From an uncultured Pseudomonadota bacterium (GTDB lineage Bacteria; Babelota; Babeliae; Babelales; JAUPTZ01), in NCBI GenBank assembly GCA_964429275.1, contig CAYSBJ010000003.1, positions 44,906 to 64,905 on the forward strand: a stretch of DNA of 20,000 bases. Reading direction: 5' to 3'. The translations under genes were made by a program, and so were the position numbers. This document shows positions 1,461 through 16,935 of the stretch, piece by piece. Within the stretch, counting starts at the first letter, position 1, and each line of letters opens with the position of its first letter. Under the pieces are notes generated by a model. The model was not told where the DNA came from and did no database searches. It was given only the letters and a program-made list of their open reading frames with translations.

Positions 1461-2672
1461 ATGCCGCTATATAAATACAAATCATTCACGCGATCTGGTA
1501 AGCAGGTCACGGGCACTATTGACGCTCCGTCGCCGCAGGGTGCCAAAGATATGTTGCAAGGTCAAGGCCTAATGCCGGTTGAGGTGCAGCTTGCTTCCTC
1601 TGCGGGTGGTTCGTTTTTGTCTCGTCTTTTTGCTCCCAAAGTAGAAGAAAAAACAGTTTTTGCGTTTACCAAACAAATGAGCGTTTTGTTGCGTTCTGGT
1701 GTGCCGCTCGTTGACTCGCTTGAAATGTTGACCGAGCAATTTGATCAGCCGTTTCAGGGTATTTTGATGTCGGTGACAGAAGGGGTTAAGTCTGGTGAAC
1801 CATTGGCTTCACAGCTCGCCGCTCATCCTACGGCTTTCTCAAATATTTACATTCAGCTGGTAAAAGCCGGTGAAGCAAGTGGTAAACTCGATGTAATTTT
1901 GATGCGCCTCTTAGAATACATGCAACGCTCAAGTGAAACGCAGAAGAAAGTAAAGAAGGCTGTATCAAAGCCAATTATGATGCTTGGTGTGGTGGGCGCT
2001 GTCGTTGGGTTGATGCTCGGGTTTGTGGTGCCACGTATGAGTGCCATGTTTGCAAAGACAGGGAAAGAATTGCCTGGGCCAACGCAGCTTCTTATGACGC
2101 TTTCAGGTTTTTTGACTAATCATTACATGCTTTTACTTGGTGGCGGTATTGGATTTTTCTTTCTTTTTTCGCATTGGAAATCTACTCCGTCTGGTATTCG
2201 CACGCTTGATGAGTTAGTGCTTAAAGTTCCGCTGTTTTCTTACTTTGCAAAAACTAAGGCCGTGGTACAATTTAGCCAGACGCTAGGAATGCTTATGGAA
2301 AGTGGTGTAAATCTTTCAGAAGCGCTCGATATTGTGTGTAACATTGTTGAAAACAAAGTTCTCACCCAAAAATTGCAAGAAGCCCGTGATAATATCATTA
2401 AAGAAGGTAAGATTGCGCGGTATCTTGCTGCAACGGGATTATTCCCTAAGATGGCGAGTTACATGATCTCTACCGGTGAAGAGTCTGGCAAATTAGCCGA
2501 AATGCTTTTGACCGTGGGTAAAGATTATGATGCAGAGCTAGGTGAAATTACTGATTCGTTAACGGCAAAAATCGATCCGATAATGACGGTAGTTATGGGT
2601 TTAATCGTGTTGTTTATTGTGGCGGCTATCTTTCTGCCGATGATGCAGATGGGTGACATTTCAGGAGTTTAG
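1461..2672 (+). CDS. gspF: T2SS inner-membrane platform protein GspF/PilC family
   Basis: MPLYKYKSF..G..VTGTIDA start; FTKQMSVLLRSGVPL; AGEASGKLD; FSQTLGMLMESGV; GEESGKLAEML; C-terminal AIFLPMM. Two T2SSF domains, 403 aa. Confidence 0.95.
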   Translation: MPLYKYKSFTRSGKQVTGTIDAPSPQGAKDMLQGQGLMPVEVQLASSAGGSFLSRLFAPKVEEKTVFAFTKQMSVLLRSGVPLVDSLEMLTEQFDQPFQGILMSVTEGVKSGEPLASQLAAHPTAFSNIYIQLVKAGEASGKLDVILMRLLEYMQRSSETQKKVKKAVSKPIMMLGVVGAVVGLMLGFVVPRMSAMFAKTGKELPGPTQLLMTLSGFLTNHYMLLLGGGIGFFFLFSHWKSTPSGIRTLDELVLKVPLFSYFAKTKAVVQFSQTLGMLMESGVNLSEALDIVCNIVENKVLTQKLQEARDNIIKEGKIARYLAATGLFPKMASYMISTGEESGKLAEMLLTVGKDYDAELGEITDSLTAKIDPIMTVVMGLIVLFIVAAIFLPMMQMGDISGV

Positions 2673-2721
2673 AATCAGGGGATGCAGGAATAATAAAAGG
2701 TAAATTTGAGTTGGCCCGTAA

Positions 2722-2819
2722 CGTCATTGCGAGGAGCAAGGCGACGAAGCAATCCAGGTATGAATAGTAAGAAAGATTAGAATGGATTGCTTCGTCATCT
2801 ATGATTCCTCGCAATGACG
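2722..2819. repeat. Palindromic repeat element (RPE/REP-like), copy 1, intact
   Basis: Two perfect 14-bp stems: CGTCATTGCGAGGA (2722-2735) with TCCTCGCAATGACG (2806-2819), and GACGAAGCAATCCA (2743-2756) with TGGATTGCTTCGTC (2783-2796), around an AT-rich loop. Confidence 0.9.
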
Positions 2820-2889
2820 GCTAAAGCCGGTCTTGGACAGCCAGTTGGTCATACTGGTTTGATTATGTAGTGAGTAAATAGGAGATCTT

Positions 2890-3333
2890 ATGATATTTGG
2901 TAAAAACCGGGCAGCGGCTTTCTCGCTGATCGAAATTCTGATTGCTATGGCGATCATTGGTACTATGTTTGCTCTCATGGCGCCAAACGCAATGAAGTAT
3001 TTCGGGCGTGCTAAAAAGACAGCGACAATAAGCAACCTGCAAGCATTAAAGCAGGCGCTGCAAGAGTACTACAACGAAATTGGTCACTTTCCAAACAAGG
3101 CTGAAGGTAACTTGAATGCATTGGTAAAGATGCCAAAGGGTGATAAGTTTAAAACCCGTTGGACAGGCCCGTACATTGATGGAGACGAGTTGCCAGAAGA
3201 TGGTTGGAAGCAACCGTTTGTGTATAATGCGCCACCAGTTAAATATAAAAAATACAAGTTCTATGAGCTGTATTCGATCGGGGAAACAGGAGATGAAGAC
3301 GCCAAGAATGAAGATCTTGCCGTCGGTCAGTAA
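2890..3333 (+). CDS. gspG: T2SS major pseudopilin GspG
   Basis: Prepilin motif A|FSLIE plus hydrophobic helix; ALQEYY.EIGHFP; WTGPY; LPEDGWKQPFVY; acidic C-terminal loop; RBS AGGAG. Confidence 0.93.
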   Translation: MIFGKNRAAAFSLIEILIAMAIIGTMFALMAPNAMKYFGRAKKTATISNLQALKQALQEYYNEIGHFPNKAEGNLNALVKMPKGDKFKTRWTGPYIDGDELPEDGWKQPFVYNAPPVKYKKYKFYELYSIGETGDEDAKNEDLAVGQ

Positions 3334-3334
3334 G

Positions 3335-3874
3335 GTGCGCCAATCTTTGCCAGCATTTAGCTTGATTGAAATTTTGATTGGGCTTTTTATTATTGGGGTC
3401 GGGGCATCAGTATTGTTGCCCCGACTTACTCGTCGTTCGCCAAATCTTGAATGGCCGGCATTGCAGCAAGAGCTGAATAATGTGCTTTATTTTGCCCGAC
3501 AAGAAGCGATTACAACGCAAAAGGTCCATCGGCTTACGTTTAATAAAAAGAAGCGCACGGTTACTGTTGAGGCGCGTGATGGCGATGTAGAAAATAAGCC
3601 CGGAGTACCGCATTATGGACCGGTGGCATCTACCTACTTTACCACTGAGTACGAGTGGCCAGAGCAGATTACTTGTGAGTGGGTAAAGCTGAACAAAAAA
3701 GATTTATTTGATGAGAATAAAGGGATGGCTTGGTGCTACGTGGTGCCAAATGGTCTGGTTCAAGACGTGTCGGTTAAGCTGGTGCGTAATGAGCATGGCG
3801 TGACAACCCACATGGTCTTTACTGCTGCGCCATTCCTGGGTGCTTTCTTTGAGGAAGAGGAAGTAAAAAAATGA
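3335..3874 (+). CDS. gspH: T2SS minor pseudopilin GspH/FimT-like
   Basis: GTG start at 3335 gives MRQSLPA|FSLIEILIG; L.FARQEAI motif; lies directly after gspG. Confidence 0.8.
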   Translation: MRQSLPAFSLIEILIGLFIIGVGASVLLPRLTRRSPNLEWPALQQELNNVLYFARQEAITTQKVHRLTFNKKKRTVTVEARDGDVENKPGVPHYGPVASTYFTTEYEWPEQITCEWVKLNKKDLFDENKGMAWCYVVPNGLVQDVSVKLVRNEHGVTTHMVFTAAPFLGAFFEEEEVKK

Positions 3875-4278
3875 AAATCATCGCTCGCGGTTTTACGATC
3901 ATCGAAGTGATGATTTCTCTTTTTATTCTTTCTACTACCATGTTTGTGCTTTCAGAGCTTCAAATTCGTTCAATGCTGCGTGTGTGGCAAAGTCGGGAAG
4001 ATATTGATCGGGTTTATATCATTAAAAAATTCTTGTATCGCATGTATCAAAGTCCCGCTGATGCCCGTAAAACTTCACAAAAATTTGATGAGCCGGAAAT
4101 GCATATGATTATTGAGCCGGTAGAAATTAATAAGAAGTCTGCTTTGGCTCCGTATGCAAAGCAATTGCAGTATTTGCGCGCTACCGCTAAATGGTCGCGA
4201 GGGACGACACAGCGAACGCTGAATTTGTTTGCGCTCGCGCCGCGGGCTCTGTCTCCTGGGAAAGGAGATGGGGCATGA
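3871..4278 (+). CDS. gspI: T2SS minor pseudopilin GspI-like
   Basis: MKIIARG|FTIIEVMISL prepilin motif, 135 aa, ATGA overlaps, canonical G-H-I-J-K order. Confidence 0.8.
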   Translation: MKIIARGFTIIEVMISLFILSTTMFVLSELQIRSMLRVWQSREDIDRVYIIKKFLYRMYQSPADARKTSQKFDEPEMHMIIEPVEINKKSALAPYAKQLQYLRATAKWSRGTTQRTLNLFALAPRALSPGKGDGA

Positions 4279-5447
4279 AGATTGATTTTATACCTGGATT
4301 GCGTCGTCACTTTGTTTCTCGCAATGGCGAGGGTTTTGTCTCCACGGGGCATTGCGACAGCGAGTCTACGAAGCTGGAAACAATCCATCTATTTTCCCCT
4401 GCGTTTAGTCTTATAGAACTTCTTATCGCTCTGGCTTTATCTGCCGTTATCATGATTGGCATGGTGCAGGGTAATCGCAACGCGGCTTATTTGCTGCGGG
4501 AAGCTCAGGCATTGCTCATCGTAAACCGCCAGGTTGCATTGCTGTATAATCAGCTTGAGCGTGACGTAACGGCTGCTATTGTCTACCAGAAACCAATTCC
4601 TTATCCGCCCGCCAAGGCCCAGCCAAAGAAAAAAGAGGGTGAGAAACAAGAGGAAAAACCGGCACCACCAAAGCCACCAGAAGAGCAATCGAACACTGGT
4701 GCTGAAAAAGGAAAAGCGGAAAAAGATAAGTTTGTACCTTCTTGTGTTCTCGAGGCATTTGATGAGGGTGTATATAAAGTTGGTACGAAAAAATGGCAAC
4801 AGACAAAGCGGCTTTCTTTTATTACAACAACGCCGCTAGAAGTATATGAACAAGAGCATGAGCGATCAGTGCGTGTAGGCTATGAGTTGGTGTATGACAA
4901 AGCAATGAGCACGCCGCAGAAGAGTGTATATACGCTGTATCGTCTCCAAACTGATGAGCTTGAAAACGTTGCATTTAAAGAAGATGAAAGTAAAAAAGTG
5001 AAGAGCGTTCTGCGGTATGTAGTGGCGGATCATATTAAGCAGTTTTCACTAGAAGCGTTATATGATCAGCGGCCGCCGCAAGCAAAAGACAATTCAGGAA
5101 AGCCGGCTGCTGTCGAGGCTCCAATTGCTGAACCGTTAACGGAAGAGGGCAGCCGTCCAACGCAGTTGCGAACATTCACGTGGGGTGAAAAAGAAGAAAC
5201 CGAAAAGAGTAAGACTGTGTTGCCCGATATGTTTGCAACACACATTGAGGTGTGGGATGGTGCCCTGCAGCGCTCATATTCATTTACTTCAACCTTTCCG
5301 GTTTTTGTAAAAACAGAAGCAAAGTCAAAACAACCAAAGAAGAAAGATGGTGCGACTGCCGGAGCTCCGGTAGAGCCAGGGGCGCCGAATGCGGCACCAA
5401 AGACTTCTGATGCCCCAGCGCCGGCAGCGAAGGAAGTGGTTCAATGA
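4275..5447 (+). CDS. gspJ: T2SS minor pseudopilin GspJ-like, with extended 43-aa leader
   Basis: ATG 4275 overlaps the gspI TGA and has an AAGGAG RBS; A|FSLIELLIALAL at 4404; QLERDV motif; V.YEL and LYR strands. Confidence 0.8.
   Translation: MKIDFIPGLRRHFVSRNGEGFVSTGHCDSESTKLETIHLFSPAFSLIELLIALALSAVIMIGMVQGNRNAAYLLREAQALLIVNRQVALLYNQLERDVTAAIVYQKPIPYPPAKAQPKKKEGEKQEEKPAPPKPPEEQSNTGAEKGKAEKDKFVPSCVLEAFDEGVYKVGTKKWQQTKRLSFITTTPLEVYEQEHERSVRVGYELVYDKAMSTPQKSVYTLYRLQTDELENVAFKEDESKKVKSVLRYVVADHIKQFSLEALYDQRPPQAKDNSGKPAAVEAPIAEPLTEEGSRPTQLRTFTWGEKEETEKSKTVLPDMFATHIEVWDGALQRSYSFTSTFPVFVKTEAKSKQPKKKDGATAGAPVEPGAPNAAPKTSDAPAPAAKEVVQ
4295..4387. repeat. Palindromic repeat copy 2, half-units in reversed order, inside gspJ coding sequence
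   Basis: TGGATTGCGTCGTCA...CTCGCAATGGCG (4295-4329) matches the right arm of copy 1. GGCATTGCGA...CAATCCA (about 4348-4387) matches the left arm. Confidence 0.8.
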
Positions 5448-6586
5448 TAAAGAAAAAGCCAGCATTCGTTCTTATTTTCTCTTTACTCAGCATGGGTATT
5501 GTTACCATTCTTACACAACAGCTTATGAAAAGCGTGTCGGTTGGCATTGCCTTCAGTCGGCAGATGGTATTGCGGGAGCAGGTCAAAATGTTTGTCTATG
5601 GTGGCATTGCTATTGCCACTGCTCAGCTTGAGCAGTGTTATCCTGAAGAAAAGAAGAAGCAGGGAGCAGAGCCAGCAGCCGGCCAACAGTCAAGCGCTCA
5701 GCCTCAAGGGCTCAAGCGGCCGTTTTCTTTTAAAACATTTATTCTGAGCGTGCTGCCACATTTAAATCGATGGCAGACCTTTGAGCTGACGGATAAAATT
5801 GATGGTGTAGATGCGCAGATTAAAGTTTGTATTGTTGCTGAAGAAGGCAAGATTCCGTTTACCCAAGTTTTTGATGAGCCGGCGCGCGAATTGACCGATC
5901 CTGCGCATGGCTTTTTGCAGCAGTTTCCTTCAGCAAAAAAGGGGGCCTCAAGTGATTTTGTTACAAAGTTTACTGCGTTTCTCAAGGGGCGTACGCATCG
6001 GATTGTCGATATTTCTGCACTACTTCCTTTTGCGCACCAAGTAAAGGTGCCGTTATGGTATGCACCGCCAGAGTTTCCAACGCGGCGTACAGCGGCTGGT
6101 GAAGTAAAGAATGAGAAAGGGAAGCCTGTTCCGGCAGCATGCGCTTTGCAAGATTTATTTACGCTTTGGGGGCAGGGAAGTAGTTTGAACCCGCTTTTGC
6201 TCAGCAATGCGCTCTGTGTTTTGAGTGGTTTGCGACCACCGCAACCGAACGATGCCCAAAAACGCAAAGATCAGTACAAGCAGTTGGCTGAAAATTACGA
6301 TAAGATTAAAAGCTTAAAAGGAGATGAGTTGTGGAAGGCTCTCGGTGCTCTGTATGACGCCAAACCAAAGCTGTCAGCCGAATTTAATACTCTCTTTTCG
6401 CTGGAAGTTGAGCCGCGTTTTTATTCTGTGCTATCTTGTGCGACAGTTGCCGGAGTGACACAGCAACTTATTGCAATTTTAGAACATGTGCCACCGACAG
6501 TTGCGCCGGCAGAACGGCGTGAACAACGGCAAAAAAAGAAGGAAATACAGCCACTGTTTGCAATCCGTAGATTGTATTGGTTGTAA
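5444..6586 (+). CDS. gspK: T2SS minor pseudopilin GspK-like
   Basis: MIKKKPA|FVLIFSLL lacks Glu5, as is typical of GspK; GGIAIA..L; I.AEEGKI motif; C-terminal RRLYW; last gene of the pseudopilin run. Confidence 0.78.
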   Translation: MIKKKPAFVLIFSLLSMGIVTILTQQLMKSVSVGIAFSRQMVLREQVKMFVYGGIAIATAQLEQCYPEEKKKQGAEPAAGQQSSAQPQGLKRPFSFKTFILSVLPHLNRWQTFELTDKIDGVDAQIKVCIVAEEGKIPFTQVFDEPARELTDPAHGFLQQFPSAKKGASSDFVTKFTAFLKGRTHRIVDISALLPFAHQVKVPLWYAPPEFPTRRTAAGEVKNEKGKPVPAACALQDLFTLWGQGSSLNPLLLSNALCVLSGLRPPQPNDAQKRKDQYKQLAENYDKIKSLKGDELWKALGALYDAKPKLSAEFNTLFSLEVEPRFYSVLSCATVAGVTQQLIAILEHVPPTVAPAERREQRQKKKEIQPLFAIRRLYWL

Positions 6587-6621
6587 TAGAGAAAATTATT
6601 AAGTCTATAGACGACGAGACT

Positions 6622-6680
6622 CGTCATCGTGAGGAATACAGCGGCGTGGCAATCCATGCGAGCTTGTTACTGCGATGACG
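6622..6680. repeat. Palindromic repeat copy 3 (degenerate, right arm mostly deleted)
   Basis: 6622-6656 CGTCATCGTGAGGAATACAGCGGCGTGGCAATCCA matches the copy-1 left arm at 26/35, ungapped. CGATGACG (6673-6680) pairs with CGTCATCG. Confidence 0.75.
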
Positions 6681-6708
6681 CGTGCAACGGGTAGAGAAAG
6701 GTAGAGTA

Positions 6709-8265
6709 GTGAAAACAGAGACGCGGGTTGGGATATTTGTTATCGGCGCCGTGCTGGTATTTTTGTATTTGAGCTTTAACATCGGCGCCTTACGTATCGA
6801 TCAAAAAAATTATGATACGTACATCAGCTTTTTTGATGATACTGGCGGTCTTGATTTAAAGGCGGCAGTAAAAACATCTGGGGTACGTATCGGGTATGTT
6901 GAGGCCATTTATTTGCGTGAAGGTGGCAAGGCTGAAATTCATCTTAAGATTCTTAAGACATATAAGTTAGCGCTCAACGCCTATGCTACGATTTCTCAGG
7001 AAACGTTGCTTGGGGGCAAAATTGTGGAACTCGACCAAGGGGATTTCTCCACTGGCATTCTTGCGCCAGGCACGACACTGGCTATGCCTGGAAAATCTAC
7101 GACGAGTGTGGGCGACTTAATTGATCAGTTTCGTGATATTGCTCAGAATGTTAGTGATATCGCTTACTCTTTTAAGACCGTTTTCTCTTCTCGCGAAGGT
7201 CATCAGCAGCTAGAAAGCACCTTGCGCAATGCCTCTGAGGCAGCAGAGAATATTGCTCATCTTTCTGATGCGGTTGATCGCATTGTGACGAAAAAAGAAG
7301 GGTCTATTAATACAACGATTGATAACTTGGATGACACGATGCGTGAATTGCGTAATGGTGTGCCAAAGGTTATTCGTGCGATTGATCAAACAGCGGCTGA
7401 TATTCGTGCTAAAGTGGTTCCTGAAGTAGTTAAAGTTGGTCCAGCTTTTGAAACCATACAAGAAGCAGCTGTTCATGCAAAAGAAGGGTTTCGTGAGGCG
7501 GAACAGGTTATGGAAAAAATAAACACCGGCAAAGGTGTTGTTGGAAAGCTGATTAACGAAGACGAGGTATATGCCGATCTGAAGAAGACTATTCATGGAC
7601 TCAAAGAGTATGTGAGTCGTGTTGAATCGCTGCAAATCTACATAGATATGCACAGTGAGACACTCTTTAAGTATGCGCGTAATAAAGGATTTTTGGAAAT
7701 GAAGATCCGACCATCGCATGACTATTTCTGGATGATTCAGATATGTAGCTCCGATTACGGCACGATTGACCGAGAGGTAGAGCAAATTATTCGCCGCGAT
7801 AGTTATGGCAATATTCTTTCAACTACCACACTCACTGAGCCACAGCACAAGCTCTGGCTTGCTGATAGCGTTGAGCGTGTTACGCGTACAAAAAATACCT
7901 ATACCTTGAGTGCGCAGTTTGGTAAGCGGTTTGACCGCTTGGTCTTGCGTGCAGGGCTTTTTGAAGGATTTTTTGGTGGTGCGGTTGATTATTACGTACC
8001 GCTTGATACCGATTTCGTTCATTGGGTGACTACCTTAGAAGCATATGACTTCCAAGGTGTATTGCGCCTTGACGATAACCGTATGCACGTGAAGTGGATT
8101 AACAAAGTAATGTTTATGAAGAATCTCTACACTTGCTTTGGCATAGATGACATTGTCAGTCGCGGCAATGCAAGTCCATTTATTGGATTCGGATTGCGCT
8201 TTACTGACTCTGACCTTAAATACTTCTTATCGTTGATTGCTGGTGCTAGCCCGTCAAACAAGTAG
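6709..8265 (+). CDS. mlaD: MlaD/MCE-domain lipid transport protein with long helical region and beta-rich C-terminal domain
   Basis: GTG start; ETRVGIFV transmembrane anchor; MCE motif F.DTGGL..KAAVK.SGVRIGYV, ATISQETLLGGK.VEL; KINTGKGVVGKLINEDEVY; C-terminal alternating beta strands. Confidence 0.88.
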   Translation: MKTETRVGIFVIGAVLVFLYLSFNIGALRIDQKNYDTYISFFDDTGGLDLKAAVKTSGVRIGYVEAIYLREGGKAEIHLKILKTYKLALNAYATISQETLLGGKIVELDQGDFSTGILAPGTTLAMPGKSTTSVGDLIDQFRDIAQNVSDIAYSFKTVFSSREGHQQLESTLRNASEAAENIAHLSDAVDRIVTKKEGSINTTIDNLDDTMRELRNGVPKVIRAIDQTAADIRAKVVPEVVKVGPAFETIQEAAVHAKEGFREAEQVMEKINTGKGVVGKLINEDEVYADLKKTIHGLKEYVSRVESLQIYIDMHSETLFKYARNKGFLEMKIRPSHDYFWMIQICSSDYGTIDREVEQIIRRDSYGNILSTTTLTEPQHKLWLADSVERVTRTKNTYTLSAQFGKRFDRLVLRAGLFEGFFGGAVDYYVPLDTDFVHWVTTLEAYDFQGVLRLDDNRMHVKWINKVMFMKNLYTCFGIDDIVSRGNASPFIGFGLRFTDSDLKYFLSLIAGASPSNK

Positions 8266-16672: not shown

Positions 16673-16748
16673 TGGCTCCCCGAGCAGGACTCGAACCTGC
16701 GACCTAATGATTAACAGTCATGTGCTCTACCAACTGAGCTATCGAGGA
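16673..16748 (-). tRNA. tRNA-Asn(GTT)
   Basis: TCCTCGATAGCTCAGTTGGTAGAGC...CT-GTT-AA...GGTTCGAG...TCGGGGAGCCA, 76 nt. Confidence 0.96.
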
Positions 16749-16859
16749 ATACGGTTTTAAATTTTACACGTTTTGGATTTTGCTAGTCTTTATTCTTCTA
16801 GCTGTCCGCTGTAGCCTGTTTTTGTTTGTGGAGCAAACAATAGTGCAGACTAAGACGAA

Positions 16860-16935
16860 TGGTGGGCGAAACAGGACTCGAACCTGTGACCCCCTGCTTG
16901 TAAGGCAGATGCTCTACCAACTGAGCTATTCGCCC
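16860..16935 (-). tRNA. tRNA-Val(TAC)
   Basis: GGGCGAATAGCTCAGTTGGTAGAGC...CT-TAC-AA...GGTTCGAG...TTCGCCCACCA, 76 nt. Confidence 0.96.

Follow-up and report, generated by a model that had tools for sequence, protein, structure and literature searches.

A palindromic repeat carried in frame in the prepilin leader of a GspJ-type minor pseudopilin of an uncultured Dependentiae bacterium

The window analysed here is a stretch of 20,000 nucleotides from the genome of an uncultured Dependentiae bacterium (contig 3, positions 44906-64905; the genome is labelled G000, and its relatives G001-G005, G016 and so on). It holds a gene row resembling a type II secretion or type IV filament system, in which the GspJ-position minor pseudopilin is encoded with a prepilin leader of 43 codons, and within that leader lie two units of a short palindromic repeat that is dispersed through the genome. 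The repeat is very likely a tolerated passenger, translated in frame within the leader and then cut off with it. Such an event is of a known kind, a selfish repeat tolerated in frame, and is here well documented and datable. Two aspects are new: the place of the repeat peptide, within a class III leader that is discarded, and the repetition of such an event at one and the same gene. Repeats in prepilin leaders were not found described in the literature covered (titles and the starts of abstracts, with subscription journals and supplements outside that scope).

The leader and its insert

The features concerned are the following.

4263..4267, plus strand: Shine-Dalgarno-like AGGAG, 7 nt upstream of ATG 4275 (read from the sequence)
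4275..4403, plus strand: leader of the GspJ-position prepilin, 43 codons (from the translation)
4294..4329, minus strand: well-kept repeat unit, in frame GLRRHFVSRNG (nhmmer 36.9 bits, E 3e-9 genome-wide)
4330..4349, plus strand: spacer of 20 nt between the two units (read from the sequence)
4350..4389, plus strand: decayed repeat unit, read as HCDSESTKLETIH (nhmmer 3.0 bits, local search only)
4404..5447, plus strand: mature GspJ-position minor pseudopilin, 347 residues and stop, with the hydrophobic N-terminal helix beginning FSLIE and a beta-sheet head
2722..2819, plus strand: full intergenic copy in the gap between the gspF-like and gspG-like genes (plus unit 2722-2757, AT-rich loop, minus unit 2782-2819)
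6622..6657, plus strand: weak single repeat unit just past the GspK-position gene (nhmmer E 2e-3)

The open frame of the leader reads MKIDFIPGLRRHFVSRNGEGFVSTGHCDSESTKLETIHLFSPA/FSLIE, with the slash here and below marking the predicted cut, and its ATG at 4275 overlaps the TGA of gspI in the sequence ATGA. At 43 residues it stands far from the leaders of the GspG, GspI and GspK positions (10, 7 and 7 residues), as the preliminary description of this DNA had said; the same description's short leader for GspH is less firm, since that length is ambiguous (7, 16 or 21 residues).

The repeat unit was searched for with an nhmmer profile of a 37-nt unit built from 21 units, whose consensus starts CGTCATTGCGAGG, ends GCAATCCAG and is 36-37 nt long; whole elements measure about 100 nt. 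The two units of the intergenic copy match this profile at E 3e-10 and 3e-6, and positions 4287-4329 of the leader are complementary to 2722-2764 at 84% over 43 nt. The leader insert had been described as a copy of that intergenic element. The two are indeed related far above chance, but the insert is not a plain copy: its plus unit has decayed and its arms are swapped, running minus unit, 20-nt spacer, plus unit, against the plus unit, AT-rich loop, minus unit found at 2722-2819 and in most of the 40 repeat clusters of the genome. The reversed minus-plus composite occurs at two other 5' gene ends in G000. The extra length, earlier put at about 93 nt, is a net gain of 111 nt (37 codons) relative to an uninserted ortholog, with the element's edges uncertain by some 10-15 nt. 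Among 31 units no conserved outer flank or target duplication was seen, the element being palindromic and the edges of the gspJ insert uncertain.

Orthologs date the insertion

A whole-genome search found gspJ in 33 of 41 genomes, G000 included. When the gspI-gspJ junctions are aligned, one clean insert block stands out, present only in G000 and its sister G004. The three other relatives in the genus (58-68% identity) begin gspJ at the same ATGA-overlapping start and read MISRAG/F (G001), MMHRPG/F (G002) and MIVRPA/F (G003), and these six-residue leaders are found even though the three genomes carry the repeat family elsewhere (14, 8 and 12 matches, respectively); all four relatives have it. 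Outside the genus, 35 of 36 genomes gave no match with the query used and the remaining one a weak 19-nt match, so that by its sequence the family appears restricted to the genus.

Short leaders are the rule more widely. A 74%-identical homolog reads MMKPG/F, and leaders of 5-10 residues were found in 17 of 19 full-length homologs (21 collected, two truncated gene calls set aside); the other two are the G004 protein, with 36 residues, and one called at 27 that has an internal Met at -6. In the best 150 cluster representatives of a profile search the motif could be recognised in 130, with leaders of 3-12 residues in 123, 15-19 in five, 25 in one and 42 in one. The last of these, the distant GspJ homolog P0039, is called with a 42-residue extension whose peptide looks repeat-derived, and an internal Met at -9 would give a leader of nine residues. 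Thirteen further ortholog loci were inspected: eight were resolved, at 4-10 residues, five had no recognisable cleavage motif and were excluded from the tally, and L018 and L019 are ambiguous. Scans of metagenome contigs for more strains of the clade, by protein and by an exact 26-nt pattern, both came back empty.

The G004 leader comprises 36 codons, open and in frame (MKIHLIPIANVIQFNGRRSRHCEKRSDEAIHLFSPA/F), and shares its first 20 and last 25 bases with that of G000. It has an intact plus unit (45.5 bits) and no recognisable minus unit. To judge from these sequences, a single ancestral insertion lost a different arm in each lineage, G000 keeping the minus unit and G004 the plus unit. The two leaders differ by a net 21 nt and agree at 18 of 43 residues, 12 of which fall in the non-repeat ends. 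Both are open solely in the frame of the gene. Selection to keep the frame open would fit this pattern, though the shared ancestry of G000 and G004 means that it is no proof.

The mature protein tells of a living gene. Over 347 codons, G000 and G004 have a dS of 0.34, a dN of 0.028 and a dN/dS of 0.081, at 94% identity, which is strong purifying selection; the preliminary description had named a pseudogene as one outcome that would overturn its reading, and gspJ is not one. These values also bear on the suspicion that so long a leader might be an artefact, produced by mis-assembly at a repeat or left by a dying gene. Assemblies are well known to go wrong at repeats, and G000 is a metagenome-assembled genome in eight contigs, four of them with foreign G+C content. 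Nevertheless, another genome, assembled independently, has the insert at the same place and between the same flanks. Positions 3900-4900 are reproduced exactly in a Logan contig of 12.6 kb, whose run may be that of the source sample, and a contig of 151 nt from another study spans 4346-4487, ungapped and with four differences, so that a third population keeps at least the right half of the insert. Two runs with a small share, X4 and X5, cover 3900-4049 only, short of the leader. An artefact is thus scarcely credible.

Translation and removal of the leader

Whether the repeat is translated at all depends on the start codon. Canonical starts in frame are ATG 4191 (inside gspI, giving a 71-residue leader), ATG 4275 and TTG 4299 (inside the repeat). 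Beyond 4275 and as far as the cleavage codon, the start scan shows neither an ATG nor a GTG in frame, as had been noticed before, although the TTG had gone unmentioned. In G004 a stop codon lies two codons upstream of the gspJ ATG. Because the start at 4275 is coupled to gspI and no other start lies downstream, the repeat would be translated as part of the leader. It is very unlikely that the repeat is instead an untranslated spacer between gspI and gspJ, with initiation at CTG 4374 or ATC 4383, the only near-cognate codons 3' of it, and a leader of 7-10 residues. A start at 4383 would yield MHLFSPA/F, of normal length, yet ATC is a very poor start, and neither codon has a Shine-Dalgarno sequence. 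CTG 4374 (codon 34), earlier proposed as a start that would refute translation of the repeat, is absent from G004. Units of the family do abut start codons elsewhere, at ffh and at a signal-peptide open reading frame (ORF) on contig 2, and in G003 an in-frame GTG inside a unit could act as the start of gspK. Both G000 and G004, however, have kept the ancestral coupled ATG with its Shine-Dalgarno sequence, both leaders remain open and in frame despite the net 21-nt difference and an amino-acid divergence of 58%, and in G005 the only possible start lies upstream of that genome's repeat.

Translation from ATG 4275 would place the repeat peptide ahead of a prepilin cleavage site. The leader ends in Ala at -1 (Ala43/Phe44), as the cleavage-site rule has it, and is followed by the hydrophobic stretch FSLIELLIALALSAVIMIGMV, with Glu at +5, which in the model begins the helix of residues 46-99. 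With a grand average of hydropathy of -0.28 (hydrophilic to neutral), a net charge of 0 and no hydrophobic 15-residue window, the 43-residue leader is modelled by AlphaFold as disordered, at a predicted local distance difference test score (pLDDT) of 41-53. One A24 prepilin peptidase homolog is encoded in G000 (42.7 bits, above cut-off); its translation has two Cys pairs and a GEGD motif, which we take to be the motifs of this family. Class III leaders vary in length, end in Gly or Ala, are cytoplasmic and are cut at the cytoplasmic face, according to a review (Pelicic 2023, PMC10191384). It is therefore likely that the peptidase removes all 43 residues.

The assignment of the gene to the GspJ type comes from predicted fold and gene order. 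No Pfam T2SSJ or NCBIfam GspJ model matches at E 0.01 or better, and a PDB profile search found pilin N-termini only. The AlphaFold model of the protein (mean pLDDT 70) has residues 1-44 disordered, with the helix and a beta-sheet head following. In a Foldseek search, ranks 1-11 and 17 went to entries of EpsJ, XcpW or GspJ complexes, with a probability of 0.99-1.00, target TM-scores of 0.44-0.69 and E-values of 1e-3 to 2.5e-2; chain lengths and entry titles suggest that the matched chains are the J subunits. Because of these matches, and of its place in a G-H-I-J-K row next to gspF, this fourth pilin-like gene is classed as GspJ-type.

Recurrence at GspJ and the question of function

Repeats have entered GspJ leaders in other lineages too. 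In the sister genus, G005 (locus L006) has a 20-residue GspJ leader, MRNQVLRPRIKSGETGKRPA/F, from a sole start with a strong Shine-Dalgarno sequence directly after the gspI stop; the middle of this leader consists of a GC-rich hairpin, of which the genome has copies at 17 other places. In another family, G016 (L013) has a 28-residue leader from its only in-frame ATG, MSARPELVEGFRAGSKACVLKKPNNRPG/F, which holds a 36-nt repeat present in at least 10 copies at 90% identity or more. Each is a genome-wide hairpin repeat of its own genome and differs from the family of the window, so the events are independent. Across 20 loci, 73 prepilin N-termini were found, 72 with a start candidate, and the shortest possible leader exceeds 13 residues in only four, all at the GspJ position (G000, G004, G005 and G016). 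G003 (L003) has a minus-plus composite of the repeat family seen in the window, this time ahead of GspK. It stands in frame after the gspJ stop and before the hydrophobic segment of GspK, and reads GLLRRFTPRND...CHCEERSDVAIQ; gspK there could start at a GTG overlapping the gspJ stop (46-residue leader) or at a GTG inside the repeat (10 residues). As related lineages have met with the same accident through other repeats, mobile DNA seems to find in this discarded peptide a place where it can settle and be tolerated.

Could the insert have acquired a use, its peptide or its hairpin modulating the supply of GspJ and GspK through initiation, mRNA stability or processing rate? Such co-option, which would explain why GspJ leaders were struck three times independently, is quite improbable. 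Repeat-bearing long leaders occur at GspJ in three independent lineages and at none of about 52 N-termini of the G, H and I positions, yet the probability of three hits on one of four genes is about 0.06, the repeats belong to three different families and an insert is missing from most orthologs. Nor is the leader peptide conserved: the 18 shared residues fall mostly in the non-repeat ends. The intergenic copy folds as RNA at -62.8 kcal/mol, with a z-score of -8.4 against shuffles; the leader region of G000, at z -0.76, folds no better than shuffles, and that of G004, at z -2.1, slightly better. This gives no support to a conserved regulatory mRNA hairpin: each genome retains a single arm of the decayed palindrome, G000 and G004 a different one, and the G000 leader copy folds no better than shuffles. 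The earlier suggestion that a hairpin here tunes GspJ/GspK stoichiometry thus falls. An Rfam scan of 2500-7000 at E 1 or better gave one chance-level match only, and a promoter and terminator scan of 2600-6800 gave a site count not above that of shuffles.

A related idea is that the leaders of tip pseudopilins are preferred landing sites, beyond being tolerant ones, for hairpin repeats of several unrelated families, Ssn-linked ones among them, which are then kept to adjust the amount or processing of GspJ and GspK. What attracts the insertions would be 5' ends of genes under translational coupling, and the idea is supported by three independent GspJ hits in one order together with the GspK hit in a sister species; we consider it unlikely.

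For the insert as a passenger removed with the leader, a few observations pull the other way. The 15 membrane-proximal residues of the leader carry a net charge of -1, against +1 to +4 in other orthologs, which suits the positive-inside rule less well. Matches of the prepilin motif models to the protein are marginal: TIGR02532 reaches 16.5 bits over residues 44-61 for a cut-off of 16.3, and PF07963 scores 20.2 bits, below its cut-off of 21.2. An open frame is not very improbable by chance, as shuffles of the G000 and G004 leaders are open in 13% and 11% of trials. The repeat unit is stop-free in four of six frames, which is about chance for 12 codons. The only ATG of G016, 20 nt past the gspI stop, is without a Shine-Dalgarno sequence, and the in-repeat GTG of gspK in G003 indicates that repeats could also supply new starts. 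Among the sequencing runs that carry the locus there is no RNA run; translation and cleavage are deduced from the DNA. As the four open frames are what chance would give, no claim is made that the repeat is shaped for coding.

The repeat family elsewhere in the genome

ORFs of at least 100 codons cover about 91% of the three main contigs, yet only 4 of the 40 repeat clusters lie inside confirmed genes: one in the gspJ leader, two in the linker of MutL and one in a TPR-like exported protein. The preliminary description had proposed a count of other in-frame copies with an eye to signal and leader peptides, and a Sec signal peptide is indeed among the sites. In the 694-residue MutL (contig 1, locus L028), the clusters at 368743-368848 and 369013-369050 are in frame in a disordered linker between the Pfam domains DNA_mis_repair and MutL_C, and their translations are WIAASPMTPRNDE and VIASEAWQS...EWIASSPMAPRNDG. 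G004 has them too; the MutL of G003, G001 and G005 does not. The G004 MutL (L031/L036, contig 70) is split over two frames just past the repeat-bearing linker, through either a frameshift or an assembly error.

The exported protein (contig 3, 150712-150830, L029) has a minus-plus composite at its N-terminus, MLCMQFSWIASSLRSSQKRLSPSRHCGRSAAIHMSFSILFFLVFFIGSAHA/ST, lying in the n-region between a Shine-Dalgarno-led start and the hydrophobic core of the Sec signal peptide; the in-frame TGA usual in the unit is altered here. Its G004 ortholog retains a 22-nt remnant only, MFYMQFSWIASSLRFLLFFLVLLAGSAQA/ST, with no later start, and the repeat is absent from the orthologs in G001-G003. In this clade, then, every in-frame copy within a confirmed gene occupies a segment that is either removed or disordered. 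Six more clusters lie in small ORFs of 80-117 residues with no Pfam match; these are not counted as genes, nor are they proven spurious.

Plus units also end at start codons. One does so at the likely ffh start (contig 1, about 454057-454090), and on contig 2 (about 44112-44145, L030) a unit's ...CCAG is followed at once by the ATG of a signal-peptide ORF. The 5' ends of genes seem to be common resting places of this repeat.

Genome and gene row

The G000 genome measures 1.21 Mb in eight contigs, of which the three large ones have 46% G+C. Contigs C4-C7, of 4-13 kb, have 60-70% G+C against 46% elsewhere, and are probably binning contaminants. Two T2SSE ATPase genes and three secretin genes are encoded in the genome. 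The secretion-gene row of the window comprises, besides gspJ:

1461-2672: T2SSF gene, gspF-like (Pfam)
2890-3333: T2SSG gene, gspG-like (Pfam), leader of 10 residues
three genes after gspG with the N_methyl prepilin N-methylation motif, ending at 3874, 4278 and 5447
3871..4278, plus strand: GspI-position pseudopilin gene, leader MKIIARG/FTIIE, with matches to Pfam N_methyl and TIGR02532
5444..6586, plus strand: GspK-position gene, leader MIKKKPA/FVLIF, with a weak NF037980 GspK match; its start overlaps the stop codon of gspJ

Further along, positions 16685-16929 of the window contain a pair of 58-nt direct repeats, 81% similar to each other with 187 nt between them, that by sequence resemble neighbouring tRNA genes on the minus strand.

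A proposed course of events and its significance

The likely history begins in the common ancestor of G000 and G004, where a two-unit composite would have inserted a few codons after the gspJ start codon. The inserting repeat would have been the genus-restricted hairpin with CGTCATT...AATCCAG ends, of the NTS/SRM kind, that accompanies small GIY-YIG genes. As the insertion was in frame, with a net gain of about 111 nt, the leader would have grown from about 6 to 43 residues, and a start translationally coupled to gspI would have the repeat translated within it. The class III leader would stay cytoplasmic and be removed by the prepilin peptidase just before Phe+1, leaving the mature protein unchanged and the insertion therefore nearly neutral. 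Thereafter the insert would have decayed differently in the two lineages, with the open frame as its sole constraint. The preliminary description had seen in the leader a safe harbour whose repeat peptide is discarded, and every comparative test it proposed fits, with cleavage presumed from the motif: the relatives have short leaders, only the 94%-identical sister shares the insert, and it is open and in frame there.

If so, a cleaved cytoplasmic class III leader has room for over 100 nt of selfish repeat DNA, and the protein takes no harm. Along with the copies in the Sec signal peptide and in the linker of MutL, the case marks out the places where such DNA is tolerated in a tiny, gene-dense genome. 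Prepilin peptidases are predicted to accept repeat-encoded leaders of 20-43 residues, and annotators are warned against trimming such starts. To the Ssn/SRM field, the case adds evidence that related units can enter coding sequence, and its recurrence in three Dependentiae lineages suggests a general rule.

Comparison with known systems

By its ends, the repeat resembles the NTS repeats of Neisseria, whose consensus is given as CGTCATTCCCGCGMAVGCGGGAATCYRG (Chenal et al. 2025, PMC11893778, here and below as far as the sections covered go). Compared by eye, the unit and the NTS and Ssn-related motifs (SRM) have the same oriented ends, CGTCATT ... AATCYRG, around a hairpin, which is longer here. 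SsnA is a 94-residue cd10448 protein, a GIY-YIG single-strand nuclease (PMC11893778). G000 has three genes for single-domain GIY-YIG proteins of about 90-100 residues, and in two cases units stand on both sides of the gene. In these two, on contig 3 (166173-166577, L050; 98 residues) and contig 1 (345518-345919, L051; 99 residues), a plus unit and a minus unit enclose the gene, an arrangement resembling an elongated hairpin element. The nearest solved relative of these small proteins is a UPF0213 protein. The published degenerate SRM search sequence matches the three main contigs at only three places, and the repeat is not among them. Because this pattern does not match the unit, the repeat is called Ssn/SRM-like, on sequence resemblance, and is not counted as a member of the family. 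The sections covered of PMC11893778 make no mention of copies within coding sequences.

Rickettsia palindromic elements (RPEs) are palindromic repeats that insert in frame into protein-coding genes (Ogata et al., via the parts covered of PMC10969869), the precedent on which the preliminary description had drawn. The repeat is like them in being a short dispersed palindrome, inserted in frame and translated as an extra peptide at tolerant sites. It differs in phylum and unit length, in that 36 of the 40 clusters lie outside confirmed genes, and in that the extra peptide sits in a removed part, so that the mature protein is without it. In-frame insertion is thus a known phenomenon, but the parallel holds as an analogy, the ends of the repeat placing it closer to the Ssn-linked NTS/SRM repeats. 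Intragenic miniature inverted-repeat transposable elements such as ERIC, BOX and Coxiella QMITE1 (PMC10969869, in the parts covered) are likewise non-autonomous hairpins that sometimes form in-frame fusions; in the repeat studied here, unlike these, terminal inverted repeats and a target-site duplication are not definable, and only the small GIY-YIG genes, rather than a transposase, are linked to it.

Long class III leaders are themselves known from type IVb pilins and from the type IVa pilins of Streptococcus sanguinis (PMC10191384, in the parts covered, as for the rest of this comparison). As in those pilins, peptidases would here accept a cytoplasmic leader far above 5-10 residues with a Gly or Ala end. 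Their long leaders, however, are a family trait of major pilins and are not reported there as repeat-derived, whereas the leader described here belongs to a minor pseudopilin and appears to stem from a datable, lineage-specific insertion of a genome-wide repeat.

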